In this document: positions 391-23,000 of the stretch, piece by piece | Position numbering within the stretch: the stretch's first letter is position 1 | Layout: every line of letters begins with the position of its first letter | DNA from: Candidatus Caldarchaeales archaeon | GTDB lineage: Archaea; Thermoproteota; Nitrososphaeria_A; Caldarchaeales; Calditenuaceae | Assembly: GCA_032249095.1 (NCBI GenBank) | Contig: JAVVGN010000006.1 | Location: forward strand, 1-43,247 | Length of the DNA stretch: 43,247 nucleotides | Direction: 5' to 3' | Made by a program: the position numbers and the translations under genes | The notes under the pieces: generated by a model | The model's input: the letters and a program-made list of their open reading frames with translations, nothing else | Told to the model about the DNA's origin: nothing | Database searches by the model: none

Positions 391-1716
391 ATGCCTTCGT
401 TAAAATCGTCAAAGGGTTACAGCTCCTTGATCTGTAGTAGCAATTCACACCCAAAGGGGGTTTATGCCGTGAAAGTATTCACCAGAAAGGCATACTTAGA
501 AAGAGGCCCAAAGGGCGGATGGGTTGGAAAGGACCCTCGTCTTGGAGGGTTCTTCATCGTTACCAATGACAGTACCATACCTGAGGATCTGCCAGGAGAC
601 GCAATACTTGAAGGCAAGATAGCGAAAACGATAACGGACAAGAGGGGTAAGCCCGTCCACATTGTCCGTTTGCGGCCGCATGTTCATCAGTTCGAGCCTA
701 CAGCTGCTGGTCTCCACTCTTGTGAATGTGGAAAAACGGAGCCGCACAGCGCCACCTGCCCCGATCGGGTTTGCGTCTGTGGGGTGGAAGTCGCTAACCC
801 CACCCACCGCTACGAACGGCTCGTCGGCGAAGTACTTCGCCCGTCCTCAGACGGAAAATACTTGGAAGAAGAGAGAGTTTGGGAATGCGTGGGGTGTGGA
901 GAGAGAACCGTCTACCCAGGCTTAGTCATCCTCAATCCCTTCTATCCAGATAGAGTATTCACATCTTACCCAGAATTGCACGCTGCTATAATGGCGGCAG
1001 AAGAGAAAGTGGAATCCGACCCAACCTGCATCCCCCTACCGCCACACCAGCCGCAATTAGAGACAACCCATCCGGCGGCGATAATGCTTGCGTGGGATCG
1101 ATGGAAGATAGAAATAAAAAACTGGTTCTCATCCCTTCCAACCGAAATTAAAGTTGGGCTTGCGGCTCTTTTAGTAGAAAAGAAACCGTCGGAAGGAATT
1201 GCGTGGGCAAGGGCAGTCGGAGAAACTATCTTCCATCCTAACCTGTACGATTTTTATCAGCTTGCTTTAAAACTTCTAAAGGGCGAGGGAGTTGAAATTC
1301 CCCCTCTGATTTGGAGGGAAAGACTAAGACCTAAATTTGAAGGATACAGAGACGAATTGGAAATAACAGGGTACGAAAAAGAGTATGAACCGCAATTCAC
1401 CGCTGAAGTCGGAACGTGGACGGAAGGAGATAGTTGGGAACCTATCCTTAACCGCCTCTCCGCCTATTTCAACCTGTCAGAGTGGGCGGAGGAAGGAATA
1501 CAGGAAGCAAGAGAGGCACTTGAAACTATCAAAAATTTAGTGGGGGAAAAAGTGCAGCAAGTTACATCAATAGACCCACTTGGCAATGAAAGAACCTTCT
1601 TCTACGTGTTAAAGGGAGATTGGGATGAGATAAAACAAAAGAGCAACGAAATATACCGCCATGTAAGCGAGATAATAAAGGCGAAACAATACAAGCAGGC
1701 ATATAGCGAAGGCTAA
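391..1716 (+). CDS. Hypothetical Cys-rich protein (possible zinc-ribbon segments); the start may be GTG 469
   Basis: Long ORF. AAAGGGGG lies 9 nt before the in-frame GTG at 469. Cys clusters HSCECGK..CPDRVCVCG and WECVGCGER. No family recognised. Confidence 0.55.
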   Translation: MPSLKSSKGYSSLICSSNSHPKGVYAVKVFTRKAYLERGPKGGWVGKDPRLGGFFIVTNDSTIPEDLPGDAILEGKIAKTITDKRGKPVHIVRLRPHVHQFEPTAAGLHSCECGKTEPHSATCPDRVCVCGVEVANPTHRYERLVGEVLRPSSDGKYLEEERVWECVGCGERTVYPGLVILNPFYPDRVFTSYPELHAAIMAAEEKVESDPTCIPLPPHQPQLETTHPAAIMLAWDRWKIEIKNWFSSLPTEIKVGLAALLVEKKPSEGIAWARAVGETIFHPNLYDFYQLALKLLKGEGVEIPPLIWRERLRPKFEGYRDELEITGYEKEYEPQFTAEVGTWTEGDSWEPILNRLSAYFNLSEWAEEGIQEAREALETIKNLVGEKVQQVTSIDPLGNERTFFYVLKGDWDEIKQKSNEIYRHVSEIIKAKQYKQAYSEG

Positions 1717-1725
1717 AATCGTAAC

Positions 1726-1832
1726 GGGGGCGAACTGGGTTCGACGGGAAGGAAAGTGGCATCGGTGGCGGGTCGGGTGCACCGATGTCGCCGCCTTCTC
1801 GGACGCGGGTTCAATTCCCGCCGCCTCCACCA
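1726..1832 (+). ncRNA. tmRNA-like tRNA-like domain only (mini-ssrA): acceptor stem with G3:U, T-arm, encoded CCA, no tag-coding region
   Basis: The 5' end GGGGGCGAACTGGGTTCGACGGGA matches the conserved tmRNA 5' end (GGGGCUGAUUCUGGAUUCGACGGGA in E. coli). The 3' end GGACGCGGGTTCAATTCCCGCCGCCTCCACCA matches the tmRNA T-arm, acceptor and CCA. The 7-bp acceptor GGGGGCG/CGCCTCC includes a G3:U wobble. P2-like helix 1746-1752/1794-1800. Hairpin 1760-1767/1780-1787. Total about 107 nt, against about 350 nt for a normal tmRNA. Confidence 0.65.
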
Positions 1833-1859
1833 ATTAACCAATGAGGGGGTCGGCAATAT

Positions 1860-2414
1860 ATGTCTAAAAAACACTGGTGGGTTGTCGGCGGCGGCACAGT
1901 TGTTCTTGTTGCCGTCGCTGCCATCGCCTACCTTGTCGGCAAACATACTCGCCCGCCAGCAACTGAGACCAACAGGTTCGTCAGGGTGATTCCGTCGGCT
2001 GAACGCCGAAGGAGAACGGAGGGAACGCCGCCGACGCTGCCTCCGCCTTACCAATACCCCCAACCCACCCCGCATGAACCGCTTGCAACATTAGTAGGTC
2101 GCTGCTCTGCCTGTAACGGGAGGGGGTTCTTTAGTGACCCAACGATTTGTCCGGTCTGCGGCGGCGCTGGCAAGGTCATTGGTGTCCGTACCGTCGGATA
2201 TGTAGGTGGTATTCCCGTCTACCAACGGGATAATGCGCCGACTGTCTGCCCCTACTGCAACGGCTACGGGTTCTTCCTTCCGTCCTACGGGCGCTGCGAA
2301 ACCTGCGGGGGCAGGACAACAGGCGACTGGTTGAATTATTGGCGACAGCTGGCGAGACAGCACTGGCTCACAACCAGCGGCGGACGCTATGCGGAAGTCA
2401 ATATGACTCCGTAA
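1860..2414 (+). CDS. Membrane-anchored protein with a DnaJ-type CxxCxGxG zinc-finger domain
   Basis: N-terminal hydrophobic helix WWVVGGGTVVLVAVAAIAYLVG. Four CxxCxG(x)G repeats (CSACNGRG, CPVCGGAG, CPYCNGYG, CETCGGRT). GAGGGGG lies upstream of the ATG. Confidence 0.7.
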   Translation: MSKKHWWVVGGGTVVLVAVAAIAYLVGKHTRPPATETNRFVRVIPSAERRRRTEGTPPTLPPPYQYPQPTPHEPLATLVGRCSACNGRGFFSDPTICPVCGGAGKVIGVRTVGYVGGIPVYQRDNAPTVCPYCNGYGFFLPSYGRCETCGGRTTGDWLNYWRQLARQHWLTTSGGRYAEVNMTP

Positions 2415-2796: not shown

Positions 2797-3222
2797 GTGA
2801 GCAGTATGTTGGAGAAACAACAAGGCGAACGATGGGCTGTCCACTACGGTGGTGTTTGCGAAATTCGCTATCACTTCGTTTGGTGCCCAAAATACCGCCG
2901 TCCTATCCTCGCGGGTTTGGTGGCAGAGAGACTTAGACAATTGCTGGAGGAGCGCGTTGCTATGCTTGGTGGCGAAGTTATAGAAATCGCCATCCAGCCT
3001 GACCATGTGCACCTTTTCCTTCGCTTGCATACTCCTTATCTTGCACCTGCTCAAATTGCTTACCGCCTTAAGGGTTATACAAGCAGAATATTGCGGAAGG
3101 AGTTTCCAGAGTTGCGCCGCCGCTTGCCGACCTTGTGGAGCCGCTCCTATTATGTTGGCACTGTTGGACAGGTTAGCAAGGAAATAGTTGAAAGATATAT
3201 TGCGTCGCAAAGGGGGCGTTAG
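2797..3222 (+). CDS. tnpA: IS200/IS605 family Y1 (HUH) transposase TnpA
   Basis: Contains YHFVWCPKYRRPIL, the HUH motif HVHLF, and the C-terminal SYYVGTVG catalytic-Tyr region. Size about 140 aa. Start is GTG 2797 or ATG 2806. Confidence 0.9.
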   Translation: MSSMLEKQQGERWAVHYGGVCEIRYHFVWCPKYRRPILAGLVAERLRQLLEERVAMLGGEVIEIAIQPDHVHLFLRLHTPYLAPAQIAYRLKGYTSRILRKEFPELRRRLPTLWSRSYYVGTVGQVSKEIVERYIASQRGR

Positions 3223-4497
3223 TTGTTGAAACTTACTTATCAATATAAACTCAAACCAACCAAAACACAAAGCAGGCTGCTGTGGCAGTTTTTGGCAATA
3301 TCGTGTCAAATCTACAATGATGCCCTTAAGGAACGAAAAGAGGCTTGGGAAACCGAGCGCCGAACCGTCACCTATCAAGAACAAGCCCTCAAACTTAAGG
3401 ATTTGCGGGCAACCGATAAAGAACTGGCGCTCCTTAACTTTTCCGCCTGCCAACATGTCTTGCGCCGCCTTGACAAAGCCTTTAAACGCTTCTTTAATGG
3501 GCTGAAGAAAGGCGAGAAAGTGGGCTACCCCCGCTTCAAGAAACCCCACCGTTTCAGGACTTTGGAGTTTACCTACGGCGACGGCACAAAGATTATGCCC
3601 GATGAGAAAGGAAGGTTGCGGTTGTATGTCCAAAATGTCGGTTTGATTAAGGTTATCTAGCATCGCCCGTTGCCCGAAGGAGCGGTCATCAAACAAGTGT
3701 GGGTTACCCTTAAGGCTGATGGTTGGTATGCTACATTTGCTTTGGAAGTGCCCGACGAGGCTGTCAGGAAACCCTTGCTAAAGACAGAAAAAGCCGTCGG
3801 GATAAATGTCGGTTTGGAAAACCTTTTGGCGCTTTCTGACGGAACGCTGATAGATAACCCCAAGTGGTTTAAGGCAACCGAGGAAAAGATTGCCCTTAAG
3901 CAACGAATACTCAGCAAGAAGGTTAAGGGTTCTAAGAGATGGCGAAGGATGTGTCGGCAAATTGCTAAGTTGCATCTTAAGGTTGCCAGACAAAGGCGGG
4001 ATTTCTATTTCAAATTGGCAGGTTGGCTCGTGAGGGAGTTTGACCTTATCGCCGTTGAGGATTTGAACACTAAGGGTTTGGCGCAAGGGATTTGTAGTAA
4101 GGGTGTGCACGATGCCAGTTGGGGCATTTTCCTTAACCAAATCCTGCCTTACAAGGCTTGGAGCGCTGGTAAGGCAGTGGTTAAGGTTAGCCCCAACGGC
4201 ACTTCCCAATATTGTGCTATGTGTGGCGCTTGTGTGCCGAAAGACCTGTCCGAGCGTCAACATTGTTGCCCGCATTGCGGTTTCGTGACGCATCGTGACA
4301 TCAACTCCGCAATCTTAATCCTTAAGATGGGCTTGGAGCGAGCCCGCAAGGGCGCTGGTTTCACACTAGCGTCGTGCCTGCAGGAAGCTGTCGGCTTTAG
4401 CCGACAGTGGCTCACAGTAGAAGAGGATGATGTGACAAGAAAAGTGGAAAAACTCCTAAAGGCAATAGACGCCCTGCTAAGGAGACTTCAGAGTTAA
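3223..4497 (+). pseudogene. tnpB: TnpB (OrfB_IS605, RuvC + zinc ribbon) with one in-frame TAG at 3658-3660; the reading frame continues past the IS right end into flanking gene sequence
   Basis: N-terminus LKLTYQYKLKPTK. The two ORFs 3223-3660 and 3670-4497 share a frame and are separated only by TAG. Zn ribbon CAMCGACVPKDLSERQHCCPHCG followed by HRDINSA. The TTG start overlaps the tnpA stop. Confidence 0.8.
4329..4416 (+). ncRNA. Conserved 3' part of a putative TnpB omega-RNA scaffold (the 5' limit is not determinable here)
   Basis: This segment overlaps the tnpB 3' end and is conserved in the ORF-less mini copies. Stems GGGCTTG/CGAGCCC and CTGTCGGC/GCCGACAG vary between copies by substitutions that keep pairing only as G:U in this transcript sense. 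Confidence 0.5.
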
Positions 4498-4519
4498 TTT
4501 CGGCGCCGAAATTAACTCT
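4490..4519. repeat. 30-bp perfect palindrome AGAGTTAATTTCGGCGCCGAAATTAACTCT, copy 1 of 5
   Basis: Exact palindrome. It contains the TAA stop of ORF 3670-4497 and lies between convergent genes. Confidence 0.9.
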
Positions 4520-4541
4520 AAAACGATGGAGTTATGCTCTC

Positions 4542-5477
4542 CTAAGGAAACACCCCCCGCAAAAGCCTGAATTTTGTCAGCACACCAAGGGTTGATCGCC
4601 AAATCATCGCCGCCAAACTACCCACTCTTTCCCTTAGCTCTCCTATACTTTCTATAAGGTTCTTTTTCTCTTCGTCTGCTGCGAGGTTAGCTACAGCCCT
4701 CGCGAAATTTTCAATCGCCCTCATCTTTTCGCCCAAAAGTGTTGCATTGCCTTCCTTCACCGCCCCTTCTAAATCCTTTACAATTTCACGAAAGTATTGC
4801 TGAGCCCCTTCTACTTTTTCAGCCGGCATTACCTCCACCAAGATTGTTTCCAATGTCTCAACGAATTTTTCAAGGTAAAGCAGGACTGCTTCCTTTACCC
4901 GCTCAACATTCTGCTCCCCCCCGTAATATTCCGACGCCATTTCTGAAAGACGATATTCATTTAGTTTCTCGCCAACAATCCTAGCAATAGCAGCAATTCG
5001 GCTAGCCACCCCAAAACGGAAGCGCTCCGCAAACGGCTCATCAGAGGAAACGACAAAACCGCCAAATAATGCGGGGTCCTGGTTTATGTGCTCATCCACT
5101 TTTTGCAGCTCCCTCTCAATACTTCTTACCCAACTGGGGGAAGGAATACAAGAGAGAACTGCCGACCAATCGGGCCTATCTAAAATATGCCTTCCCCAAT
5201 CAATCCCCTGCCACTCTTCTACCTTAACCTCCTCCGCAGAAACGGAAAGACGAAAGGCTGTTAATACCCTCAGCATCGCCCCAAAGGCATTTCGAAGAAT
5301 GACTAGCCAGTCCAGCACGGAAACTAAGGTGTTGACGGCAAAAACCTCCTTCTGTCCTCTTCCTCGTCGTGCTACTCTATCTAGAAGGGCTACGAGATCC
5401 CTTCCGAGGCTATCTATAGCCTCCAGAGCAGAGAGAATATTGGTCGCTATCTCCGTCTTCCAAGATGCCTCTTGCAT
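4542..5477 (-). CDS. Hypothetical alpha-helical protein, paralog family 1 (with 6757-7554 and 8682-9647)
   Basis: GGGAGG RBS. Shares EEWQGIDWGRHILDRPDW vs VPWTEVDWEKVILDYPAW and a C-terminal F-x-F/L-L-L-R motif with the other two members. Confidence 0.65.
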   Translation of the reverse strand: MQEASWKTEIATNILSALEAIDSLGRDLVALLDRVARRGRGQKEVFAVNTLVSVLDWLVILRNAFGAMLRVLTAFRLSVSAEEVKVEEWQGIDWGRHILDRPDWSAVLSCIPSPSWVRSIERELQKVDEHINQDPALFGGFVVSSDEPFAERFRFGVASRIAAIARIVGEKLNEYRLSEMASEYYGGEQNVERVKEAVLLYLEKFVETLETILVEVMPAEKVEGAQQYFREIVKDLEGAVKEGNATLLGEKMRAIENFARAVANLAADEEKKNLIESIGELRERVGSLAAMIWRSTLGVLTKFRLLRGVFP

Positions 5478-5596
5478 TATTAACCTCCCCCCACTGAAAA
5501 TTTTAGGGGTATGAGCCGCTCAGGAGGTTACCTTCTGCCGAATAATAAGGGAAAGGACAACGCTTATGACCAACGACCTTAGGAGGCACTGTAGCC

Positions 5597-6085
5597 ATGT
5601 GGGAGTGGGCACCGCAACTTTTGCGGGCGTTCCAAGAAAATTACGCACCGATTCTCGCCCAGTGGGGGCTGCCATTCCAAGTGCACACGCAGGAGACGGA
5701 AAACCCAATGGAGGGTATCTCCAAGTATACCGTCAAAATAGAAATCTGCAGACCGTCCGCAACCGGAGAATACCTCGTGCTGATAGAAGAATCTCTCCAC
5801 AAAGCGGACAAGAAGCGTTGGATTACCGTCGGGTCGTCCTTAGGAGCAGCGATAACGCGGTGGAAACTGGATCAGCTGGTCTGGAGGGTCTTCCACAACG
5901 CGGCAAACGATATTATCGCCGATATCATTGCCGAGCAAGTAAAAAGATATGCCCCCAGCGAGACGGTCAAGGTCAATTTCGCCTTGAGCGACGGGGCGAT
6001 TATCCGCTTTGGCTGGGGGACCCTCCACATCCCGTTGTCACACATTGGAGAAATGCCAAAGCTAATTGCAATGCTTGCAGTTTGA
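5597..6085 (+). CDS. Hypothetical protein, paralog family 2 (with 6190-6762)
   Basis: AGGAGG upstream. The N-terminus APILAQWGLPFQV is similar to APKLRQWGISVTP of the next ORF. Preferred over the overlapping frame 5566-6165. Confidence 0.55.
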   Translation: MWEWAPQLLRAFQENYAPILAQWGLPFQVHTQETENPMEGISKYTVKIEICRPSATGEYLVLIEESLHKADKKRWITVGSSLGAAITRWKLDQLVWRVFHNAANDIIADIIAEQVKRYAPSETVKVNFALSDGAIIRFGWGTLHIPLSHIGEMPKLIAMLAV

Positions 6086-6189
6086 CCGCCTGCCCCCACC
6101 CGCTAACCAAAGATTTAGGGATTAGCGGGATGGCGGACGCTTCAATAGGCGGCACTGCCGAATAATAGCATCGGTGGAGGTGTTACAGA

Positions 6190-6762
6190 ATGGACCCGAA
6201 GGAATCCTTTAACTTAGCAGTGCACTTGTTTGAGACTGTCTTCGCTCCCAAGCTGCGGCAATGGGGGATTTCTGTAACCCCTATGGACGACTACGGGGGG
6301 AGAAAAGAGTGGACTATAGAGAGCCACAAAGGAGCAACAATAATTTTAATAACTCCCCACGTATCTGGCATTGGAATTTACAGGGAGGGACCAGGGGGAA
6401 GAATAATGCGTACTTGGGAATACTCAAAGGAAAAGGCGGTAAAAGCGATCCGCAGGAAACTCATTAAAGTAACCGCAGGCGCGATTGTGTCTATTTGCCG
6501 AAGTACGGCACCGCCAGAATTCACCAGACTTTACATAGACTACCGATTCACTGAGGAGAAAATTGACTGGTGGTTAAGAGATACCCGCACGACACTCCCT
6601 TCTGAGATAGCCCTAACCTTTGTGATTGAGCCAACGCGTCTTCGTTGGAAGTGGATAGTAGAAATTGAGCGAAGAAACAAATTTACCGTGCAGGGGGATG
6701 ATAATCCAATAGAAGCCCACCACCGCATTCTTAAAACAGGTATTTCCCTTGCTACTCTATGA
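6190..6762 (+). CDS. Hypothetical protein, paralog family 2
   Basis: GGTGGAGGTG RBS 8 nt before the ATG. Similar to 5597-6085. Confidence 0.6.
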   Translation: MDPKESFNLAVHLFETVFAPKLRQWGISVTPMDDYGGRKEWTIESHKGATIILITPHVSGIGIYREGPGGRIMRTWEYSKEKAVKAIRRKLIKVTAGAIVSICRSTAPPEFTRLYIDYRFTEEKIDWWLRDTRTTLPSEIALTFVIEPTRLRWKWIVEIERRNKFTVQGDDNPIEAHHRILKTGISLATL

Positions 6763-7554
6763 AACAAGGCGACGCAGAAAGGCAAATCTTCGAACTAAAC
6801 GGTTTGTCACCTCCCCAAGCGCAAGGCCCAACTCGCTTATTACCCCCGCCAAACGCTCAAGGCTATCTGCTAATTTGTCCGCATCTGCCTTAAGTTTATC
6901 CCGCTGCACATCCGTCAGGCTCTCATCCTGCAGCTGCCCTCTTAAATACTCCAATACCAATTCCCCAATTTCGTTGATTTTCTCCCAATAGACCTTCACC
7001 TCATCCCAGTTCCCTTTCACTACGGCTTCCTTAAATAGCTCTGCCAAAGCTTCTATATTGATAGGTCGCTCCGCCACCTTAGAAAGGTGTTCTTCAATAA
7101 TTTCTCGAGATTCCCTAAACAACTTAAGTGTCTTTCCTTTTAAAGTACCGAGGCCGCTGTCATGAAGGCGAGGCAACCCCTCCCCTATTTTTATGCTTTG
7201 CCAACGGCCCTTTTCCTCCGCTATTTTCTGGTCAACAACCCCAGCGATAAGATCAATCCATTCTTTTATTTCCTCCTCAAAATATTTAACAGTCGAAAGA
7301 TTGGGAGGGACGCTGAAAAGGCGGCAAATTCTTTTGAAGGCAGGCGAGTTGTCCACCTCTTTAAGCAATCTTGCTATATCCGCTACTAACTCAGAAGAGG
7401 GTAGGTGTTTCCGCACCTGCCCCCATGCCGGATAATCCAAAATGACTTTTTCCCAATCCACCTCCGTCCAAGGTACCTCCTGCACCTCTACTTCCTCTGC
7501 CTGCCGCGGCGCCTCGTGCCCTTCACTTCCCGCCAAAAGCCTAAGTACCTCCAC
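6757..7554 (-). CDS. Hypothetical alpha-helical protein, paralog family 1
   Basis: Similar to 4542-5477 (see that entry). GTG start with no clear RBS; possibly coupled to the small ORF upstream. Confidence 0.6.
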   Translation of the reverse strand: MEVLRLLAGSEGHEAPRQAEEVEVQEVPWTEVDWEKVILDYPAWGQVRKHLPSSELVADIARLLKEVDNSPAFKRICRLFSVPPNLSTVKYFEEEIKEWIDLIAGVVDQKIAEEKGRWQSIKIGEGLPRLHDSGLGTLKGKTLKLFRESREIIEEHLSKVAERPINIEALAELFKEAVVKGNWDEVKVYWEKINEIGELVLEYLRGQLQDESLTDVQRDKLKADADKLADSLERLAGVISELGLALGEVTNRLVRRFAFLRRLVS

Positions 7555-7598
7555 AAGACTATCACGAAGGGTAATTAATCTGCCAATTACCTCGTTTT

Positions 7599-7727
7599 CT
7601 ATTGTATCGGCAAGGTCAGTCCACCAGCCTCTTCAGCTACTTCTTCTAAAAATCTCTTCAATTCGTAAGTACTGGCTAAGGCTAACCCTATATAGTTTGC
7701 TATTTCCCTCTTCCACACTCTACTCAT
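7599..7727 (-). CDS. Small hypothetical protein (42 aa)
   Basis: ATG 7727 is preceded by GGAGGTG. MSRVWKREIANYIGLALASTYELKRFLEEVAEEAGG looks like a real helical sequence. The longer ORF extending to 7892 lacks support. Confidence 0.35.
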   Translation of the reverse strand: MSRVWKREIANYIGLALASTYELKRFLEEVAEEAGGLTLPIQ

Positions 7728-7844
7728 TCTTTCATTTGCACCTCCATTCCATAAACGGATTTTAAACAGACGAAAAGTCCTTTGGGGTTTTAGCCAAAGG
7801 CAAAGCAAGCGAGGTAAAATTAAGGCGCTGGAGGTGTTTCTATA

Positions 7845-8102
7845 GTGGCCAATGTTATCAAAGGAAGAACGGATTTTGTAGTCATCTCCCAAACAAAAAA
7901 GTTCTATCGGATGCAGGATGCAGTCATCGACGGGCTAATCAATGTACTGTCGGAAACGATAAAGTGGCTGGAAGGTGTAAGGGGCAAAGCCTCCATCAGC
8001 GGGGTCATTCTCTCCTGGATCAATGATCTTCAAGAATGGGAAGTAATGATTACCTTCCGCGAACTGAGCCCAGAGGAACCGGTAACGAACGCGAAGAGTT
8101 AA
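7845..8102 (+). CDS. Small hypothetical protein (the start may be ATG 7911)
   Basis: The ORF ends with its TAA inside palindrome copy 2, as ORF 3670-4497 does in copy 1. Confidence 0.45.
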   Translation: MANVIKGRTDFVVISQTKKFYRMQDAVIDGLINVLSETIKWLEGVRGKASISGVILSWINDLQEWEVMITFRELSPEEPVTNAKS

Positions 8103-8124
8103 TTTCGGCGCCGAAATTAACTTT
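8095..8124. repeat. 30-bp palindrome, copy 2 of 5 (29/30 match, ...AACTTT)
   Basis: AGAGTTAATTTCGGCGCCGAAATTAACTTT, located between convergent genes. Confidence 0.9.
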
Positions 8125-8180
8125 TGAAAGGCGCGCCAATCCCAGCGGAAGGGAAAGATGTAACTTGACCCCCTCCTTTC

Positions 8181-8468
8181 CTATAGCCGCTTGTGCAACT
8201 TCCTGATAAGCTCATCTAACTTTCTCATCTTGGCGAAAAGGTCAACTTCCAAGGCGCCCTTGCTACTATCCTCAAGGAGAGGAATATACCCCCCAAGCCT
8301 AATAGCGTCACGGAGCCACCTCACACCGACATCCCCCAACTTCATATCACGAGCGACTACATCCTCTAAGGCACGAGTAATCTCATCTATAACCCGCGCT
8401 CTGATCCAATCCACATCCAAAGGTGCGCCTCCGATTTTATCCATCAACCTCTCCGCAAGCCATTTCAA
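8181..8468 (-). CDS. Hypothetical protein (95 aa); start uncertain
   Basis: ORF with a TTG start at 8468 or an ATG 8 codons in. The frame stays open upstream to a TAA but has no start codon there. Confidence 0.45.
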   Translation of the reverse strand: MKWLAERLMDKIGGAPLDVDWIRARVIDEITRALEDVVARDMKLGDVGVRWLRDAIRLGGYIPLLEDSSKGALEVDLFAKMRKLDELIRKLHKRL

Positions 8469-8644
8469 TCCATCCGAAGTAGGTGCAACATCTATCGCTG
8501 CCCTGCAATCCTCACAAGTCGGAATATAATCCCATTCACTATCGTCAAAAATATCTTAATTCCATATGTAATTTTAACCTTTTTGGTAGCCGAGGAGAAT
8601 TGTCTTGATTCTTAAGCAAACCGATTGCCCCAGATTTGGGCTCA

Positions 8645-8720
8645 CGCAGTGGCGATAGCCAGCACATGGGTTCAAACCCCATCAGGGCAATCCGTCAGAT
8701 TCAGCCGACGGTAGGTGACC
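8645..8720 (+). mobile_element. Deletion remnant of a subfamily-B mini IS605-type element (LE hairpin joined to the last ~55 nt of the RE scaffold)
   Basis: GTGGCGATAGCCAGCACA plus TGGGTTCAAACCCCATCAGGGCAATCCGTCAGATTCAGCCGACGGTAGGTGACC. This aligns with 14160-14177 and with TGGGTTTAACCCCCACACGGGCAAGCCGCCGGCTTTAGCCGACGGTAGCTGACA at 14303-14357. Confidence 0.5.
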
Positions 8721-9647
8721 GAGGGCACTTCTTAGCAAGAGGAATTTGAAAAACACCTTTGCTGAGCCCCAGTAGACCAATTCCGTAAGCCAGCTCAACA
8801 AACTCCGGTCCGCTTCGTTTAGATCAGAAAGAATGGGTCTGTCGTTAACTGTGGCCCGTACAATATCTACAAGGCGACTGATTTCACGGTAATAGATTTC
8901 TGCCGCTTCGTTCACCTCACCTTTCTGTAGAGCCCTCTTAAACCTCGCAGCCGCATCGGACAAAAGCTCTAACGCTGCATTCTTTTGTCCCTGCGGCAGT
9001 TGCGAAAGCGATAAAGCTTGCTTTAGGACATGGTGTAGGTGGTCAAAAGACTCAAAAACTTTTTGTGGGATATTTCTCCCCGCCAATAGTGCCTTCAGTT
9101 CATCAACAACCGAAAACAGGGGGGAAATGTAGTCTTGAATGATAGACGTAAGGGCATCCGAAAACACCTGCGTGTCTATCTTGACCTTCTGACACAGCGA
9201 GGAGAATTCTTCGTGTGACTCCATTTTAGCAAGCCATGAGCGTGCCTCCGCCAACTCGCTTTCAATATTACGAAGATAAAATTCTTCTATATGAGTTAAC
9301 ACTTCGTTCATCGAAGACGATACTGAAGAGTCTTCGTCCAGCATTTGTAAGACAACTTTCTTTGCCGAGTTTTCTATAACTTCCATCGAGCTATTTATTC
9401 CACAGACATAAAAACGAAACTTATAGATTATTTCATCCAGCTCCTTTTCCCGTTCCTCGCGGGATCGTGGCCTTTTCTTTTTTGCCTCCGCCCCAAGACG
9501 CTCCTTCTGATCGACGAGACACGCTAACAAAAACCACCCCAATAACCCGCTTAATTGCAAAAGTTTGGAGGATGCCCCCCCAGCAATATCTCTTATTGAG
9601 CGCCACTTCTCTAAAATGCGGTCACGAAAGCCTTTAGGTTCCATCAT
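8682..9647 (-). CDS. Hypothetical alpha-helical protein, paralog family 1 (ORF open to 9740; MM start at 9647 preferred)
   Basis: The C-terminal FFKFLLLRS motif resembles the other family members. The last ~12 codons and the stop lie inside the mini-element remnant. Confidence 0.55.
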   Translation of the reverse strand: MMEPKGFRDRILEKWRSIRDIAGGASSKLLQLSGLLGWFLLACLVDQKERLGAEAKKKRPRSREEREKELDEIIYKFRFYVCGINSSMEVIENSAKKVVLQMLDEDSSVSSSMNEVLTHIEEFYLRNIESELAEARSWLAKMESHEEFSSLCQKVKIDTQVFSDALTSIIQDYISPLFSVVDELKALLAGRNIPQKVFESFDHLHHVLKQALSLSQLPQGQKNAALELLSDAAARFKRALQKGEVNEAAEIYYREISRLVDIVRATVNDRPILSDLNEADRSLLSWLTELVYWGSAKVFFKFLLLRSALGHLPSAESDGLP

Positions 9648-9730
9648 ATCTACCCCACGTAAGGATTTTAAGTAACAAGCCTTGCAAGCGGCGAAGCGCG
9701 AGGTAATAATAGAATTGGAGGTGGCCCACG

Positions 9731-9916
9731 TTGTCTCCAATTGAAATTGTTGGACGGGACCCCGCTTACAGAGACAGCCAAGGTATCCTTTACTGCGGCG
9801 ATGCCTTAGAGATTTTACAGAAATTGCCTTCGGAAAGCGTTGACCTCATCCTAACCGACCCGCCCTTCATGATCAGCCAAGAAACCGTCATCCGACGGGC
9901 ACCCCATCACAAGTAG
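9731..9916 (+). pseudogene. N-terminal fragment of a DNA (N6-A/N4-C) methyltransferase, truncated after the DPPF motif
   Basis: ILYCGDALEILQKLPSESVDLILTDPPF is followed by 15 unrelated codons and a TAG. Only 61 codons, against about 250-300 for intact enzymes of this kind. Confidence 0.6.
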
Positions 9917-10713
9917 TCGGCAACCGCGTATCCCAAGCTCAGGAGATTTACCGAACACTTAAAGAAAAAGTTGAAGGAGTATATTTACTTCACAGCCGTT
10001 TCACCAGACGAGACCGCGCAGAGAAGGAACGAAGGATAATTGGTTCATTAAGGGATACAGACAACACAGAAGTTCGAGTTTTAGTAGCAACCCAAGTTGT
10101 CGAGGTATCGTTAGATATAAGCTTTGACACCCTCTACACAGAGATAGCCCCCGTTGACGACTTACTCCAACGGTTCGGCAGGGTCAACCGTTACGGTGAG
10201 CACCCCGCTGGCGTGGAAGTCCATGTAGCAACCAAATACGATAAGCGCCTGCATAACGTCTATGGGAAAGAGCGCCTCGAAGCGACCCTCAACTGCGGGC
10301 CCGCTGATAACGCCGAGCTACCCTATGTTGTGTGCTCGCAATGGGTTAAGAGGGTTTACAAAGGGTGGACGAAATCTGAAGAGAGGAGGTTCTCTAAAGC
10401 AATGAGGGGGCTGGAAGAGTTATGTCGGGACCTAAAGCCGCTGACGGCCCTGAGTGAAGAGGATGAGCACGACTTAGAAAGTTACCTCAGCCAAACAATT
10501 GAAGTTCTTCCTAAATGTCTGGAGGACACTTTTAACCAATACTGGAACAACGGAGAGTATCTGCTTGCCTTTCAACTCCTCGCCCCCGTGCCCTTCTGGG
10601 TATGGAAGGAGTTACCAAAGAAAACAAAGAAAATAGGAAATGGGCAAGAAATATCGATAACCGATACGGCATATGACTCTGAAGAGGGGCTTAAAATTGA
10701 AATTGGTGAGTGA
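9913..10713 (+). pseudogene. cas3: Cas3-type SF2 helicase fragment (RecA2 lobe + C-terminal domain only; no HD nuclease, no RecA1, no start codon before GTG 10213)
   Basis: Frame-1 translation from 9913: VVGNRVSQAQEIYRTLKEKVEGVYLLHSRFTRRDRAEKERR...VRVLVATQVVEVSLDISFDTLYTEIAPVDDLLQRFGRVNRYG. HSRF...DR, ATQVvEvSLDIsFD and QRfGRvnR are hallmark Cas3 helicase motifs V/VI. The frame opens only at 9844. Confidence 0.7.
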
Positions 10714-11777
10714 CCGTGCGTGAAAAAGACTGGGAAAAGGCAATCCAAATCGTTGACAAAGAATACAAAAACAAAGTGGTTCGGGGGTCAGCCCAATGGT
10801 GGTCTTTGGTTCTCGGAGTATATAAGAAAATGCAGGGGCGAAAAATGCTTCGGCGGCTCAAAGCAGCAGGAATCCTAAGGAAGCAGCAGATAGACTTACT
10901 GACCATCCTCGCCCCGATTCTAACACCTTCCTTCCCAATTTCCATTGACCAGCTGTTAGTAGACCTACCTACTCCATTTACCATTACTTCGCTGGAAAAC
11001 TTGGCGGCACATTACCAACGTCTTATTCCCCAGATGGCGCTTTTATCCCCTTCCCAAAACCCGCCCCTCGTCTTTGTGCCTCTCCGTGCCGAAGAAATTC
11101 TCAAACTTGAAGAAGGGCAAGGGATCCCACTCACGACAATAGACGAATTCCCTGAATGGGTGGAAACATTCATTAAGGCATGGTATACCGCTATTTTGTG
11201 CGGCATTTTGGACGGCGTTTTTGTTCCGCAGGGCGAGGCAGGACTAAAATGGATTCTCCAGCTAACTGCTAATCCAGTGCTGAAGACTTTCTTGGGTACA
11301 CAATTACGGCGTAATCTTGAAAGCCTCAATACGGCGTGCCGTCAGTGGCAAAACATCACATTGGCGGACGCGCTGAGCCTACAGCACCGCTTTGGCGTAT
11401 TTAAGCAAAACAATGTCACGATGGGCGCTTTTCTACACCCGTCAGCCATCGGGCGGGTATGGTGCGTCCGCCTCCACGCCCTCCATAACCCTCTCTTTCC
11501 CAAAGAATTTAGCCCTGCCAATGCTCATCAGTGGTGGCTGAACACCATCCAAAGCCTCCTTCCTTGTCAATACTTGGACGAGGGAAATGTGGAAGGGTGG
11601 GTTCCACTCATCGGCGGTGTCCTTAACCGTGACGACATCGGAGCACTTGTTATCTTTAGAGATTTCGTCCCCGCCCATCCGTCATTGCGGATAATTGAAG
11701 TTGACTTTGACACGGATTATAATTTAATCGCTGAGGTTGCTACTAAGGTAATAAAGCAGAGAAGTGGGGCGAAATGA
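10710..11777 (+). CDS. Hypothetical protein (355 aa), translationally coupled to the flanking ORFs
   Basis: GTGA overlap with the cas3-like frame and ATGA overlap with the portal-like gene. No Walker motif or other family signature seen. Confidence 0.55.
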   Translation: MTVREKDWEKAIQIVDKEYKNKVVRGSAQWWSLVLGVYKKMQGRKMLRRLKAAGILRKQQIDLLTILAPILTPSFPISIDQLLVDLPTPFTITSLENLAAHYQRLIPQMALLSPSQNPPLVFVPLRAEEILKLEEGQGIPLTTIDEFPEWVETFIKAWYTAILCGILDGVFVPQGEAGLKWILQLTANPVLKTFLGTQLRRNLESLNTACRQWQNITLADALSLQHRFGVFKQNNVTMGAFLHPSAIGRVWCVRLHALHNPLFPKEFSPANAHQWWLNTIQSLLPCQYLDEGNVEGWVPLIGGVLNRDDIGALVIFRDFVPAHPSLRIIEVDFDTDYNLIAEVATKVIKQRSGAK

Positions 11778-14074
11778 CCGACCGAGAGCTAGCTGAAGCA
11801 ATGGAACGACTGAGGCAGGCAATAGTTTCAACTCCGTCCACCCTCGATAAGGAGCTGGCAAAAGCAGATGCCGCCATTGCACCAACACTAAATGAAACCT
11901 TTGCTATGCAAATGCTTGAGAAAGCATTGCCGCCCGTCCCAACCACTCTTATTACTACCAACCTGGATGAAGCCAGCCAGCGTCTAGTAGAGCAGGTTTG
12001 GAACCTAATGCTATCTGGGCGGTCAACGCGGGTTCGCCGGAGTTGGCATGTTAACTTTATCTTGCTCCGCCGATTGTCTTGGCTCAACCCCATCATCCGT
12101 CCCGCTATCAACCTCATAAGACAAGAATTGCGCCAACTCAACTGGGAAATCGTCCCGCTAAAGCCCGAAGCGAAAGGAAGAGTTTTATTAGCCCACAGGT
12201 TACTTTTGAACCCTCACCCGCTACTTTCGTGGGGCGAATGGCTGGATAAAATGGTAGAAGATAGCCTCGCTCTGGACGCCGCAGCATCCGAAGTTTGGTC
12301 GGCAAGATACATACCTTTTACGATCACTTACCCCCAACTCGTCTTGCCCCAACTGGAAGAGAAAAAGAAGAAGCCAGAAATGCCCGCTGCCCCGCAGCAA
12401 GCCCCGCCTGACCTGGAAGAACTCATCGGATTGGCGGGGGGAATGCGGAAAGAATTAGCATCTTCTTTACTCCATACCAAACGTATGGCGGAATTAGTTA
12501 TTAAAGAGAGATTGTTTTGGTTGGAAGAGTGCGGGCTGGTTAAGTCAACGACAGACATTTACCGATATATTGACGCGATGTGTAACCGATTGTCTAAAGC
12601 GAGAGACCTGCTGGAAGCCCACGAAATCATGGTCGCCGAAAGCCCATCCGTCCTGCGCAAAACCTTCGGGGGCTCCGAGGAAGAGTTGAACAAAGCGGCG
12701 CTTAGCGTCAGCGAACCAAGCCTAATCCCCTACCCGATGGATTTGCCCCTAGCGCTTATCCCCGTGCCTGGCGAACAGATTGAGTTCCAGGGAGATATTT
12801 ATACACTGGTTTTAGACCCTTACTTCCCCTATTTGCGCGTGGTAAACGGCGTTATCATGCGGGCTTATCAGCGACACGAACTAATGTATGTCAAGGAAAA
12901 CCCTCGCACTTGGAGTTTCTACGGGCTCTCGCCGATTGAATGTGTCATTATCGTCGCCCACGTCATGCTCTACGCCCACGATGTTCAGTTTAGATATTTC
13001 TTGACGGGCGCTGTGCCAGCAGCCGTGATCGGCGTCGTCGGCGCTGGAGATGTCTCTGAAATTCGGGCTTACTTAAACGAGGTTGCACGGGGTAAACAGG
13101 AAGCCATCGCCGTCCTCGGCATCCCGCCACAAGGCAACCTCATCGTCCAGCGCCTCGCCGAAACCAACCGAGAGTTGCAATACATTCAACTGCTGGAATG
13201 GTATGCCCGACTAATTTCTATCGCCTTCGGTCTCCAACCCTGGGAACTGGGCATCCTCTCTGGCGGAACACCGTCCCGCAGGATGCTTCGGCAAAGACCA
13301 GGCATTTACGGACGATTTATCACCTGGGAAAATGCCATCAACCATCACATCATCTACCGAGGTTTTAAACTGGCACCCCACCGAGACGCAGTCTTCAGGT
13401 TTGTGAACAAAGACATCGGCGACTTCAATGAGGAATCACAAGCCGTAACCAACTTGGTTGAACGGGGAATTATCACCAGAAACGAAGCGCGGCACAGACT
13501 TGGTTACCCACCCCTCGTTGGCGGGCTGCCCGACCACGCCTACACCGTCGCTGGTCAAGCGCTGTTGCTCCATGGAAAAGCCCCGCCTGTTGGCACAGAG
13601 GGCGAGCCGCCTGAAATCCCACCCATTCCCAGCCCCGTCGGCTTCTGGGTGCCGCCCCCCGTGGGGGGCATAAGCGCCGCTATGGCAGCAGGGGGGCGAG
13701 GTGGGGGTGGAGGCGGTGCTGGTGGCGGTCTTGCGGGGCTGCTCGGCTTGGCGAAATCTCTCATACCTACCCCTACTACGGTTTCTTTAGAAAAATGGAG
13801 TGACGAAATTCAAATTGCTTTGAAACTCTTTGCCAGAGCAATGGTCGCTGGGGGAGAAGTTACTCATTGGCGGGAGGGTATCGCGCTCGGCATCGCCATC
13901 AAAGATGCACTGGAAAAGCAGCTAAAGCGCCAAATTACGGACGGAGAGTGGATTGCGACGCTCCGCCAAATTCTGGATTTTCTCTGGAAAACCAAGTGGG
14001 CGAAGGAATGGGATGAGCTAATGCTTAAAATGGTAGACATTACCGACTTGCTCAAACCACCAGACAACAGATAA
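11774..14074 (+). CDS. Putative portal-like virion protein with a Gly-rich C-proximal linker
   Basis: 766-aa ORF. The call rests on size, on an N-proximal segment (NPIIRPAINLIRQELRQLNWEIVP) reminiscent of portal families, and on context. I cannot verify it without a profile search. Confidence 0.4.
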   Translation: MTDRELAEAMERLRQAIVSTPSTLDKELAKADAAIAPTLNETFAMQMLEKALPPVPTTLITTNLDEASQRLVEQVWNLMLSGRSTRVRRSWHVNFILLRRLSWLNPIIRPAINLIRQELRQLNWEIVPLKPEAKGRVLLAHRLLLNPHPLLSWGEWLDKMVEDSLALDAAASEVWSARYIPFTITYPQLVLPQLEEKKKKPEMPAAPQQAPPDLEELIGLAGGMRKELASSLLHTKRMAELVIKERLFWLEECGLVKSTTDIYRYIDAMCNRLSKARDLLEAHEIMVAESPSVLRKTFGGSEEELNKAALSVSEPSLIPYPMDLPLALIPVPGEQIEFQGDIYTLVLDPYFPYLRVVNGVIMRAYQRHELMYVKENPRTWSFYGLSPIECVIIVAHVMLYAHDVQFRYFLTGAVPAAVIGVVGAGDVSEIRAYLNEVARGKQEAIAVLGIPPQGNLIVQRLAETNRELQYIQLLEWYARLISIAFGLQPWELGILSGGTPSRRMLRQRPGIYGRFITWENAINHHIIYRGFKLAPHRDAVFRFVNKDIGDFNEESQAVTNLVERGIITRNEARHRLGYPPLVGGLPDHAYTVAGQALLLHGKAPPVGTEGEPPEIPPIPSPVGFWVPPPVGGISAAMAAGGRGGGGGGAGGGLAGLLGLAKSLIPTPTTVSLEKWSDEIQIALKLFARAMVAGGEVTHWREGIALGIAIKDALEKQLKRQITDGEWIATLRQILDFLWKTKWAKEWDELMLKMVDITDLLKPPDNR

Positions 14075-14099: not shown

Positions 14100-14358
14100 G
14101 GCAGGTTGCAGTCGACCTCGCAGGGTTTCACAGAGAGTGGCAGCAGGAGGCTTTCGCCTTGCTGGCGATAGCCAGCACAGAGGAATGCCGCCTTTACACC
14201 TCCTTTCAGTTACGTTATAATTGTAATTAGTGATTGAAAGAGCGTCTGCCCCTAACATAAGGTTAGGGGCTCGGGCTGCCGTCAGCCAGCCCCAGATGCT
14301 CGGTGGGTTTAACCCCCACACGGGCAAGCCGCCGGCTTTAGCCGACGGTAGCTGACAG
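14100..14358 (+). mobile_element. Subfamily-B mini IS605-type element (LE hairpin + TATAAT + diverged omega-RNA-like scaffold)
   Basis: TCGCCTTGCTGGCGATAGCCAGCACAGAGGAATGCCGCC aligns with TCGCCTTGCTGGCTATCGCCAGCACAGGGGAATGCGCC at 2702-2738. ACGTTATAATT (TATAAT at 14216-14221). The 3' end is GCCGGCTTTAGCCGACGGTAGCTGACAG, against GTCGGCTTTAGCCGACAGTGGCTCACAG in the full element. The left limit is approximate. Confidence 0.55.
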
Positions 14359-14361
14359 GGT

Positions 14362-14913
14362 ATTTCGCGACGACATGGGTAAGGTGGAAATATAAAAAGG
14401 GGTATAATAATAGGAGGAGGTCGCAGCCGACAACGCAGGATGTTTCGCGACAGTATAGGTAAGGTGGAAAGTGGAAAGGCATGGTAGGCATTTGTTGGAG
14501 CAATGGGAATGCAGTTTCGCGACAACATGAGTGTGGTGGAAAGAAACTTGGCAGAGTTGGCAGAGATGGGTTCGCGACAACATGAGTGTGGTGGAAAGAT
14601 AACTTCGTCCCTCACCCGAAGAGAAGGGTGAGGAGGTTTCGCGACGACATGAGTGGAGTGAAAAGCAAAGGGATGCCAGCGTTTCGCGACAACGCAAGTA
14701 TGGCGGAAGGTGGAAAGAAGGTGGAAAGTCAACCTGCCATTGGTCGTTTTGTGGTTTCGCGACGACATTGGTAAGGTGGAAAGGCATTCATTGTGGGCGA
14801 GGATGATGACAACGTTTCGCGACAACACGAGTAAAGTGGAAAGGAAGGCGGCGCACTTGCAAGGCGAAGAAGGCGGGTTGATAGCTTCGCGACAACAAGA
14901 GTGTGGTGGAGGG
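14362..14913 (+). repeat. Array of nine direct 30-bp repeats, consensus GTTTCGCGACRAC-N8-GGTGGAAAG (CRISPR-like termini, irregular spacing)
   Basis: Unit starts: 14362, 14442, 14514, 14569, 14636, 14681, 14754, 14814, 14884. The TTCGCGAC core is invariant. The 3' GTGGAAAG is mostly conserved and the centre is variable. Gaps between units are 50, 42, 25, 37, 15, 43, 30 and 40 nt. Confidence 0.85.
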
Positions 14914-14939
14914 GAAAGTATAATATACACGGACGGCGC

Positions 14940-14969
14940 AGAGTTAATTTCGGCGCCGAAATTAACTCT
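14940..14969. repeat. 30-bp perfect palindrome, copy 3 of 5
   Basis: Exact AGAGTTAATTTCGGCGCCGAAATTAACTCT. It lies between the repeat array and the AAGGAGG RBS of ORF 14988. Confidence 0.9.
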
Positions 14970-14987
14970 AAGGAGGATGGAAAGAAG

Positions 14988-15281
14988 ATGGCAACGCTTC
15001 GGAGTTGCTTCTTTGCGTACACTCACCAGATGGCGGGCGCTAACTTGGACGAGGAGGTAAAAATCGTCCGCCTAAAGCGGGTGGATACCGACGTTGAGGT
15101 GATAGTGTGCGAAGCGTGTGCGGGGAGATTACTATCAACGGGGAACTTTGTTGTCGTAGAAGAGTTTCGCGACGACATGGATAGAATGGAAAGCATAGAG
15201 CCCGTCGCCTTGCAAGACCTCTTGGATGAAGGAACGACAGTTGAGGATGTCAGCGACGACGGCGGAGAAGGAAATTCTTGA
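14988..15281 (+). CDS. Small acidic protein (97 aa) containing repeat unit R10 in its coding sequence; paralog of the IS-interrupted gene 2481/4417
   Basis: AAGGAGG at 14970-14976. ...FVVVEEFRDDMDRMESIEPVALQDLL resembles ...FVLVNNETHHIEF|VEEDDVTRKVEKLLKAIDALL. At DNA level GTAGAAGAG occurs at 15156-15164 and at 4417-4425. Confidence 0.5.
   Translation: MATLRSCFFAYTHQMAGANLDEEVKIVRLKRVDTDVEVIVCEACAGRLLSTGNFVVVEEFRDDMDRMESIEPVALQDLLDEGTTVEDVSDDGGEGNS
15164..15193 (+). repeat. Tenth copy (R10) of the 30-bp repeat, inside ORF 14988-15281
   Basis: GTTTCGCGACGACATGGATAGAATGGAAAG. It shares 16 contiguous nt (TTTCGCGACGACATGG) with R1. Confidence 0.8.
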
Positions 15282-20214: not shown

Positions 20215-21069
20215 TTACGATTGCTGGTTATCAGAAAATATATCTACCAACCCCACGCTGAGGTTATGGTAGATGTAATCGACATATCGCCTATTTATAT
20301 CAATACCCCAAGCGACCCGATTCAAGCGCAAGGCAGTGTAAAGGGTAATGCCACTTCCAGCAAAGGGGTCAAGAACCGTATCCCCAACAAAAGAGAACAT
20401 CTTGATAAGACGGTACGGAATCTCAGGTGGAAAGGGAGCAGGACAAATATCGCGCCGCCGGTTCGGCGGGAGTTGCCAGATGCCTGTGGACGCCCATACG
20501 AATTCCTCCTTCGTCAATTTGCTTGCCTCCCTGATTTCATCCGCTGCGATGGCAGGCCGATACTTACCACCCTTCTGAAAGATAAGGATATATTCATAAA
20601 AAGTGCAAACGGGAATGTTAGGAGGATAAGGAAACGACCCATAAAGGTGAAGCGCCCCGCCAGAAGCATGATGCGCCCGTAATTGCTCGTAAAGAAAACT
20701 CCCCTTATAGATCAGCCCGCATTCCTTCTCCAAGTAAACAATAATGTGGGCATGCGTCGGCAAACACCTATTGACCTTTTCGTACTTTAGATTTGTCCAA
20801 GAATCGGCAATATTAATACATAGCTTCCCGCCACGGACTACGACGCGGGCGCATTCCCTTAAGATAGCGAGCAGCTTGGCTAAATACTCCTCCCAAGTAG
20901 GCTGGTTTTCTAAATCATCCGCCAAATCCGTGTAGTATCCTGACCGTATGTAGTAGGGAGGCGATGTTACCACAAGGTGAACGCACTCGTCAGGAAAAGT
21001 CTGGAGAATGGGCAAAGCATCCCCCGCCCAAAGCTTCCAACGCTCTCCCGCATACGTCGGTTGAATCAA
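20215..21069 (-). CDS. DNA methyltransferase (N6-adenine/N4-cytosine, beta-class motif order)
   Basis: VVTSPPYY (motif IV) precedes DPFAGSGIT (motif I). Confidence 0.85.
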   Translation of the reverse strand: MIQPTYAGERWKLWAGDALPILQTFPDECVHLVVTSPPYYIRSGYYTDLADDLENQPTWEEYLAKLLAILRECARVVVRGGKLCINIADSWTNLKYEKVNRCLPTHAHIIVYLEKECGLIYKGSFLYEQLRAHHASGGALHLYGSFPYPPNIPVCTFYEYILIFQKGGKYRPAIAADEIREASKLTKEEFVWASTGIWQLPPNRRRDICPAPFPPEIPYRLIKMFSFVGDTVLDPFAGSGITLYTALRLNRVAWGIDINRRYVDYIYHNLSVGLVDIFSDNQQS

Positions 21070-21204
21070 TTAAAACCCTCCTTTCCTCGCTGGCTGCTTC
21101 AAGCGACCGGCTGGCAGGTTGAAATTTTAGCACCGCCGTGTTATAACTGTGGGTGGCGAGACTGCCGAATAATATACTCGGGACGCCGAAAGGAGGAAAA
21201 AGCG

Positions 21205-21900
21205 ATGGCACGCCGTAAGCCTGACGCTAATCAGATGACGGACGAAGAAATCATCGCCCGCCTGACGCGGGACGAGGCGGTAGAGATACTCTTGGAGCGG
21301 TACGAGGGGTACCTGTGGCAAATGGCGCGAACGCGGTGGGAGCAAACAACAGGTAAGGAGTTTGTGCCCTTAGAAGACCTTGTTTCCGCAGCTAAGCTGG
21401 GCTTTATCGTTGCCGTCCGAGAATTTAACCTATCAATGGGCGTCAAATTTCTCACCTACTTTGTTACCGTCGTCAACAACCACATCCTCAAAGAGATTCA
21501 AAACTTCATGCCCCTCTCTTTCGGCACTTGGAGCCAAAAGACGGAAGCGGAAAAGGAGGAAATCGCCCAAGTCCTAAAGTCAATCCAAAGCCTCAACAAC
21601 AACGACAACCCTTATTCCCTTGATGAAGACACCCCGTTGCTTGAGGAAGAAATTCCCGACGAAGCCGACTTAGAGGAACAGGGGCGGCGGGAATTGCGTT
21701 GGATACTAAGGAATGCTGTCCGTCGCCTGCCACCCGCCGAACGACAAGTCATTACCTTAATCTATGGCTTGCGAGGGGGTAACCCACTATCACCCAAGGA
21801 AGTCGCAAAAATACTCGGTTACACCCCGAAATCAGTCAGCGTCATACTAAATAGGGCGACACAACGGCTTAAAAAGATATTATCGGAGCCCCTGACATAA
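21205..21900 (+). CDS. Sigma-70 family RNA polymerase sigma factor (no. 1)
   Basis: AAAGGAGG RBS. Region 2: EDLVSAAKLGFIVAVREFN..FLTYFVTVV. Region 4 HTH: LPPAERQVITLIYGL..SPKEVAKILGYTPKSVSVILNRATQRLKK. Confidence 0.8.
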   Translation: MARRKPDANQMTDEEIIARLTRDEAVEILLERYEGYLWQMARTRWEQTTGKEFVPLEDLVSAAKLGFIVAVREFNLSMGVKFLTYFVTVVNNHILKEIQNFMPLSFGTWSQKTEAEKEEIAQVLKSIQSLNNNDNPYSLDEDTPLLEEEIPDEADLEEQGRRELRWILRNAVRRLPPAERQVITLIYGLRGGNPLSPKEVAKILGYTPKSVSVILNRATQRLKKILSEPLT

Positions 21901-22953: not shown

Positions 22954-23000
22954 GCCTTTCTCCTTCCCTCCTGTTGAAGTCAAAGGATTAGCAGTGCCAA

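Follow-up and report, generated by a model that had tools for sequence, protein, structure and literature searches.

Nearly all CRISPR-Cas systems of huge phages lack Cas1, Cas2, and Cas4, and an I-C variant with a substitute helicase has been highlighted among them (Al-Shayeb et al. 2020, PMC7162821). The locus described here is like those systems in being a compact phage-borne locus, in occurring on contigs of up to 255 kb, and in forming a block devoid of Cas1, Cas2, and Cas4. Unlike the highlighted I-C variant, it is of subtype I-B (Cst1/Cst2/Cas5t) with an HD-helicase Cas3, and, unlike the huge-phage systems in general, in the strain studied here one deletion appears to have removed the entire effector module along with two thirds of cas3. 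The locus also resembles the type I-B (Tneap/Cst) systems of thermophilic bacteria, in which Cas3 likewise consists of HD, RecA1, RecA2, and C-terminal domains within 725 to 770 aa. The bacterial Cas3 proteins used for comparison (Syntrophothermus lipocalidus WP_013175511.1 and those of Fervidibacter and Armatimonadota MAGs) are 49 to 56% identical to the surviving part of the phage protein, the S. lipocalidus one reaching 78% over motifs IV to VI. However, the cellular loci are complete, several of them with adjacent regular arrays, whereas the window (the whole stretch of 43,247 nt that was analyzed) keeps only the last 266 codons of cas3, together with a degenerate array built on a different repeat. 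We consider it very probable that this locus is a scar left when a huge phage recently lost about 5.9 kb of its own type I-B operon by deletion, hence ordinary gene loss and no new device.

The window is the entire contig C6 of a 2.03-Mb, 146-contig MAG. It encodes a portal protein, a DnaB-like helicase, a family A DNA polymerase, three or four sigma-70-type factors, two further methyltransferases, and an IS605 TnpB. Its G+C content (0.50, versus 0.55 to 0.57 in the largest contigs of the assembly), the size of congeneric genomes (1.4 to 1.7 Mb, versus 2.03 Mb for the MAG), and the presence on contigs C7 and C15 of the same mini-transposon sequence as in the window suggest that a large phage was binned here together with a cellular genome. 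No other contig of the assembly is similar to the region at the nucleotide level. Three genes with sigma-70 region 2 and/or region 4 domains lie at positions 20977 to 23064 and 36040 to 36981; such genes would fit a large phage that redirects host transcription. The features on which the following paragraphs rely are listed here in window coordinates.

9682..9710, plus strand: promoter-like site TTGCAA-17-AATAAT, upstream of the methyltransferase start
9731..9916, plus strand: 5' stub of an N6/N4 adenine DNA methyltransferase gene; TTG start, 61 codons, DPPF at residues 43 to 46
9908..9916, plus strand: deletion junction; homology to the methyltransferase of the relative L013 ends at 9912, and homology to its cas3 begins at 9912
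9913..10713, plus strand: 3' remnant of cas3; 266 codons and a stop, with helicase motifs IV to VI and the Cas3 C-terminal domain
10710..11777, plus strand: ORF355 (355 aa, conserved, no match to a Pfam family); its GTG overlaps the cas3 stop (GTGA), and it overlaps the portal gene by ATGA
11774..14074, plus strand: phage portal protein gene (PF04860, E 8e-15), the synteny anchor with relatives
14362..15198, plus strand: degenerate irregular array of 8 to 10 copies of an approximately 30-nt repeat, GTTTCGCGAC..GTGGAAAG

The first-pass annotation had described a methyltransferase stub, a start-less C-terminal half of Cas3, and overlaps of GTGA between the remnant and the open reading frame at 10710 to 11777 and of ATGA between the latter and the portal gene; all of these elements were found in their places, both overlaps included. 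It had also advised a search with Cas3 profiles, and the remnant matched the curated model TIGR01587 (cas3_core) above its cut-off (E 1.5e-40; 139.4 bits against 102.45) over model positions 224 to 353 of 358. A match to PF22590 (Cas3-like_C_2, E 1.5e-31) identifies the Cas3 C-terminal domain. The frame is open from 9844 to the TGA at 10711 to 10713, Cas3 homology begins at V24 (nucleotide 9913), and the helicase motifs present are IV (VVGNRV), V (VLVATQVVEVSLD), and VI (QRFGRVNR). With the product of this frame as the query, 2,290 matches at E <= 1e-10 were found among 1.84 billion representative proteins, their alignments starting at query residues 22 to 24 (nucleotides 9907 to 9913) and reaching the C terminus of proteins of about 730 to 800 aa. 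The remnant can be aligned, free of gaps and stops, with the final ~266 residues of full-length Cas3 (starting near position 491 of 768) and end to end with the C termini of full-length members of the family; when it was aligned with ten relatives, neither a frameshift nor a stop was seen and motifs IV, V, and VI were kept. Judged by these matches, the assignment to Cas3 lies far beyond chance.

What precedes motif IV in Cas3 is missing. The RecA1 lobe (motifs I to III), present in the Cas3 of L013 and in the proteins P0283 and P0162, is absent from the remnant, whose homology begins at motif IV and which is preceded by methyltransferase sequence. A Cas3 HD domain is likewise absent from the window, and the fragment is the sole match in contig C6 in a TIGR01587 search of the assembly; an HD protein encoded at 39876 to 41102 matches only the generic PF01966. 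The cas3 frame contains no ATG, GTG, or TTG before the GTG at 10213. A programmed −1 frameshift from the methyltransferase into the cas3 frame was considered and rejected, no X XXY YYZ slippery site being seen in 9844 to 9913. The public NCBI annotation of the contig nevertheless holds a 255-aa product that starts at a noncanonical ATT at 9946 (P0280), together with the 61-aa methyltransferase stub as a second call (P0313). Pseudogene fragments would be the better label for the two, and the 255-aa public protein in particular should be read as such a fragment and not as a gene.

The relative that defines the event, L013 (Ga0080007_1100433, 10,170 bp), came from a scan of metagenome contigs in which the Cas3 fragment, aligned with its relatives, served as the query; it matches the remnant over all 266 residues (residues 461 to 726 of its Cas3) with 87% aa identity, the next best match reaching 55%. 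Its genes are arranged as follows, in L013 coordinates.

937-1995, minus strand: 352-aa gene, counterpart of window 8682-9740
1982-2776: complete methyltransferase, 264 aa (CcrM-type model, 3e-38)
2825-4462: Cas8b1/Cst1 (TIGR01908)
4464-5714: Cas7/Cst2/DevR (TIGR02585, 4.5e-28)
6015-6773: Cas5t (TIGR01895, 7.5e-27)
6724-8904: Cas3, 726 aa (HD, TIGR01596, 4e-21; helicase, TIGR01587, 2.6e-78)
8901-9968: ORF355, with the GTGA overlap as in the window
9965 onward: start of the portal gene

Two blastn segments connect this contig to the window: L013 915-2169 corresponds to window 8650-9915 (86% identity), and L013 8103-10170 corresponds to window 9912-11979 (91.8% identity, no gaps). The 5.94 kb that separate both segments in L013 are missing from the window. 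Since both genes truncated in the window are complete in L013, the window carries a deletion, rather than L013 an insertion. At the level of sequence comparison, this collinearity establishes the synteny, the limits of the deletion, and the identity of what was lost, namely, the rest of the methyltransferase gene (3/4 of its length), cas8b1, cas7/Cst2, cas5t, and the first 460 codons of the HD-helicase cas3. No cas1, cas2, cas4, or cas6 gene lies between the methyltransferase and ORF355 in L013. Beyond the deletion, the layout is the same (cas3 ends at 8904 and ORF355 starts at 8901 in L013), and ORF355 is 95% identical to its L013 counterpart at the aa level.

On the other side of the junction, the stub is 95% identical in aa sequence to residues 2 to 62 of the 264-aa L013 methyltransferase, and profile searches relate it to the N termini of adenine methyltransferases (NF008572, E 2.7e-8; CcrM model, 1.3e-5). 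It retains residues 1 to 61, including DPPF, lacks a complete catalytic domain, and has no Pfam match above the cut-off. The ancestral ATG (L013 1982) reads ACG in the window, and the next codon is the TTG at 9731. The length of 61 codons given in the first-pass annotation holds, but the stop does not come just after DPPF, as had been noted; it lies 15 codons further on and is a product of the junction, base-by-base comparison with L013 showing that the TAG at 9914 to 9916 was created by the join and derives from the cas3 side. The same comparison leaves 1 nt (A) shared between the two sides, or at most an imperfect 4-nt AxTA. Other methyltransferase genes of this type are present in the window: a complete N6/N4 gene on the minus strand at 20218 to 21069, and another (PF01555, 1.1e-18) at 42812 to 43246, open at its 3' end where the contig ends. 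Counting the gene reduced to the stub, the phage thus possessed three or more genes of this kind prior to the deletion.

We propose that the ancestral operon sat between the divergent 352-aa gene and the ORF355-portal module, in the order methyltransferase, cas8b1, cas7/Cst2, cas5t, and HD-helicase cas3. A single illegitimate recombination at the level of microhomology would then have removed a stretch of about 5.94 kb that begins at methyltransferase codon 62 and ends at cas3 codon 460, joining the gene ends out of frame; as a result, the stub would stop one codon past the join and the cas3 tail would be left without a start. The tail would have been kept only because the deletion ended short of ORF355 and the portal gene, and the GTGA overlap goes back to intact cas3. 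The remnant is thus most likely a nonfunctional pseudogene fragment, passively transcribed from the old operon promoter into the structural genes. A candidate for this promoter is the site at 9682 to 9710, which may have served the one-time methyltransferase-cas operon and which now has ORF355 and the portal gene about 1 kb downstream of it. Conservation with L013 extends to this region; the site is a weak one, defined by consensus match only (3 such sites were found, versus 1.8 expected in shuffled sequences). Because of this upstream promoter-like site and because no plus-strand terminator-like site occurs up to 10713, transcription probably continues across the scar into ORF355 and the portal gene.

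The age of the event is indicated by two proteins from other assemblies, P0283 (582 aa; ENA contig of 34.7 kb) and P0161 (535 aa; JGI contig of 36.1 kb), which are identical to the remnant at 265 of its 266 residues and extend upstream through RecA1. The sole difference is an A-to-G substitution in VVANRV, eight bases from the join. Longer, near-identical alleles thus exist, and since they differ at one residue only, the open frame speaks for youth and is no sign of retained function; the remnant would be undecayed because the event is very recent. We conclude that the deletion is of very recent date and probably polymorphic in the population. Comparison with L013 gave dN/dS values of 0.18 for the remnant, 0.17 for the portal N terminus, and 0.09 for both ORF355 and the methyltransferase stub. 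When the 34 aa differences between the window and L013 were polarized with eleven outgroups, 4 proved derived in the window, 8 derived in L013, and 22 ambiguous, so the window lineage is not accelerated. Two small marks of disuse are seen, the change of the methyltransferase ATG to ACG and the substitution at a nearly invariant position of motif IV. However, a low dN/dS and 266 intact codons would be equally expected under selection, and these data do not separate selection from a young deletion. The calls for P0283 and P0161 themselves begin at an internal GTG or ATG (about positions 148 and 195 of a 729-aa protein) and lack the HD domain. These short starts could be a contig-edge effect or reflect a second, independent cas3 lesion in a sister strain.

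The cell with which the phage was binned has a type I locus of its own on contig C1 (44256 to 55407), with a Cas7-like gene near 49.5 kb, a Cas6-like gene at 54.7 kb that is the sole Cas6 match of the assembly, and a 570-aa Cas3' without HD at 51.1 to 52.1 kb. Its array is regular, with about 33 copies of a 26-nt repeat, CTTTCAACTCCCTCTCTCGGGATCAC, at 44256 to 46398; this repeat is unrelated to that of the phage, and the spacers have no match in the phage contigs. Over 380 aa, the C1 Cas3' shares about 25% identity with L013 Cas3; with the window fragment it shares 47% over a conserved RecA2 stretch of 98 residues. The comparison with the host system that had been recommended therefore yields no link between the two.

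Capture of host type I DNA was among the origins first suggested for the scar, and in its more specific form a piece of a bacterial cas3 would have entered the phage methyltransferase gene by illegitimate recombination. Recombination did leave a scar, but the synteny with L013 makes the remnant the phage lineage's resident cas3. The closest named cellular Cas3 proteins (49 to 56% identity) do come from thermophilic bacteria, namely, Fervidibacter, Armatimonadota, Thermosediminibacteraceae, and Syntrophothermus; from this we take it that the phage system was presumably acquired from bacteria at some earlier time. For the present junction, however, we regard capture as hardly credible: phage relatives carry a full cas3 with cas8b1, cas7, and cas5t at this exact position, beside a complete methyltransferase gene; identity of the fragment to those phage genes is 87 to 99.6%, and no cellular gene exceeds about 56%; and an insertion cannot yield two genes that are both cut on their inner sides. 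An assembly chimera at 9880 to 9913 had been raised as well. The contig could misjoin two places of an undeleted phage genome or collapse a strain bubble, so that the methyltransferase-cas3 junction, which is drawn from the assembly, would be an artifact. Near-identical strains retain at least 582 residues of Cas3, other assemblies contain contigs of about 35 kb with N-terminally short Cas3 calls that hint at graph breaks here, and the junction-specific 61-aa stub is on record for this contig only, independent assemblies leaving the same join unconfirmed. Against this, a single relative shows both sides in collinear arrangement, with order and orientation unchanged, and the 1 to 4 nt shared at the join fall far below any k-mer overlap that assemblers need. 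A 166-aa open reading frame derived from the truncation is also found on 5 JGI and 3 Logan contigs, the longest of 76,217 bp, in agreement with the figures for the identical portal protein. A 103-aa call occurs on 2 ENA contigs, and the presence of one or the other call on 10 other contigs is compatible with the same deletion without proving it. We therefore rate an artifactual junction as unlikely. A misjoin at a repeat shared with the other two methyltransferase genes of the contig was rejected; these are 42 to 47% identical at the protein level, and no nucleotide similarity is found elsewhere in the assembly.

Cas3-binding anti-CRISPRs (e.g., AcrIF3) and solitary-repeat RNA anti-CRISPRs are phage elements that resemble a type I part and could, in principle, titrate its partner. 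By analogy, the RecA2 and C-terminal piece might be translated from a noncanonical or internal start (ATT 9946, GTG 10213, or ATG 10402) and be kept in one phage subpopulation as a dominant-negative decoy that competes with full-length Cas3 for recruitment to Cascade. The phage would in that case have converted the wreck of its own CRISPR-Cas into an anti-CRISPR. The intact 266-codon frame with its dN/dS of 0.18, the operon-like setting in which the frame overlaps the following gene by GTGA, and the 255-aa product called by NCBI can all be quoted in favor of such a role, which we nonetheless hold to be very improbable. Indeed, 100 codons past the join contain no canonical start, and GTG 10213 has no convincing ribosome-binding site; intactness is explained by age, given the single residue that separates the remnant from longer alleles; and the GTGA overlap is ancestral, being already present in L013. 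The bin's only cellular Cas3, the distant protein on C1, belongs to another locus with an unrelated repeat. No stand-alone homologue of 91 to 291 aa was found, and this counts as weak evidence, since the word-based search overlooked even the 166-aa and 103-aa calls made on the remnant; apart from these calls of the phage itself, no homologue of comparable length was recovered. Unlike AcrIF3 or the RNA anti-CRISPRs, the remnant thus lacks evidence of translation and stand-alone conservation, and a deletion offers the simpler origin. The retained Cas3 C-terminal peptide put forward in the first-pass annotation accordingly gains no positive support, and we keep to the reading of the remnant as a pseudogene fragment.

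The intact operon is widespread among relatives of this phage. Exact-sequence and cluster look-ups (clusters of at least 90% identity) placed the methyltransferase, Cas8b1, Cas7, Cas5t, and Cas3 (725 to 734 aa) on many JGI and ENA contigs, the longest of 255,739 and 106,681 bp; JGI names the operon proteins Cas8b1/Cst1, Cst2, Cas5t, and Cas3. Portal homologues with 66 to 92% identity are found on contigs of up to 199 kb. There is thus a family of huge hot-spring phages that has its own compact type I-B CRISPR-Cas system beside the portal module. In the assembly under study, tblastn with L013 Cas8b1, Cas7, and Cas5t gave no match, and so the Cascade trio cas8b, cas7, and cas5 of a functional type I-B system, present in L013 and on other contigs, is missing here and has no second copy. 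Strains with and without the operon appear to coexist, and comparing such a pair could help to show the benefit and the cost of CRISPR-Cas to the phage that carries it.

IMG/VR contained no relatives when searched with the fragment, ORF355, the portal protein, or the portal alignment; tblastn against 50,697 phage records returned only distant Cas3 matches (up to 47% identity, over one third of the query); this DNA is absent from 60 genomes related to the bin; and a scan of genome contigs with the portal alignment gave no match. P0012 (78% identity) was considered as a phage relative and rejected because it is the Cas3 of S. lipocalidus; as a query against IMG/VR, it retrieved only matches of 26 to 27% identity.

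The repeats downstream of the portal gene, some 4 kb past the scar, had been tied to a type I system in the first-pass annotation, which was right in spirit, as the phage family carries type I-B. They are 63 to 83% alike and spaced by 55 to 280 nt, unlike a regular CRISPR array, and we presume that they are the array of the lost type I-B system. Within the assembly, the repeat is confined to this contig; in 185,579 species genomes, it gave single chance matches and no array. The time scales clash, however, the array being strongly degenerate while the cas deletion is recent and cas3 has evolved under purifying selection (dN/dS 0.18); an array so much more decayed than a recent cas loss predicts speaks against our preferred reading of the locus. 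The array may have decayed well ahead of the cas loss, the system may rely on a different array, or the repeats may serve another purpose.

A piece of about 90 nt of an IS200/IS605 mini-element is present between cas7 and cas5t in L013 (5926 to 6019), away from the limits of the deletion. Copies of this mini-element, 81 to 88% identical to the L013 piece, occur in the window at 2674 to 2753 and 14143 to 14222.
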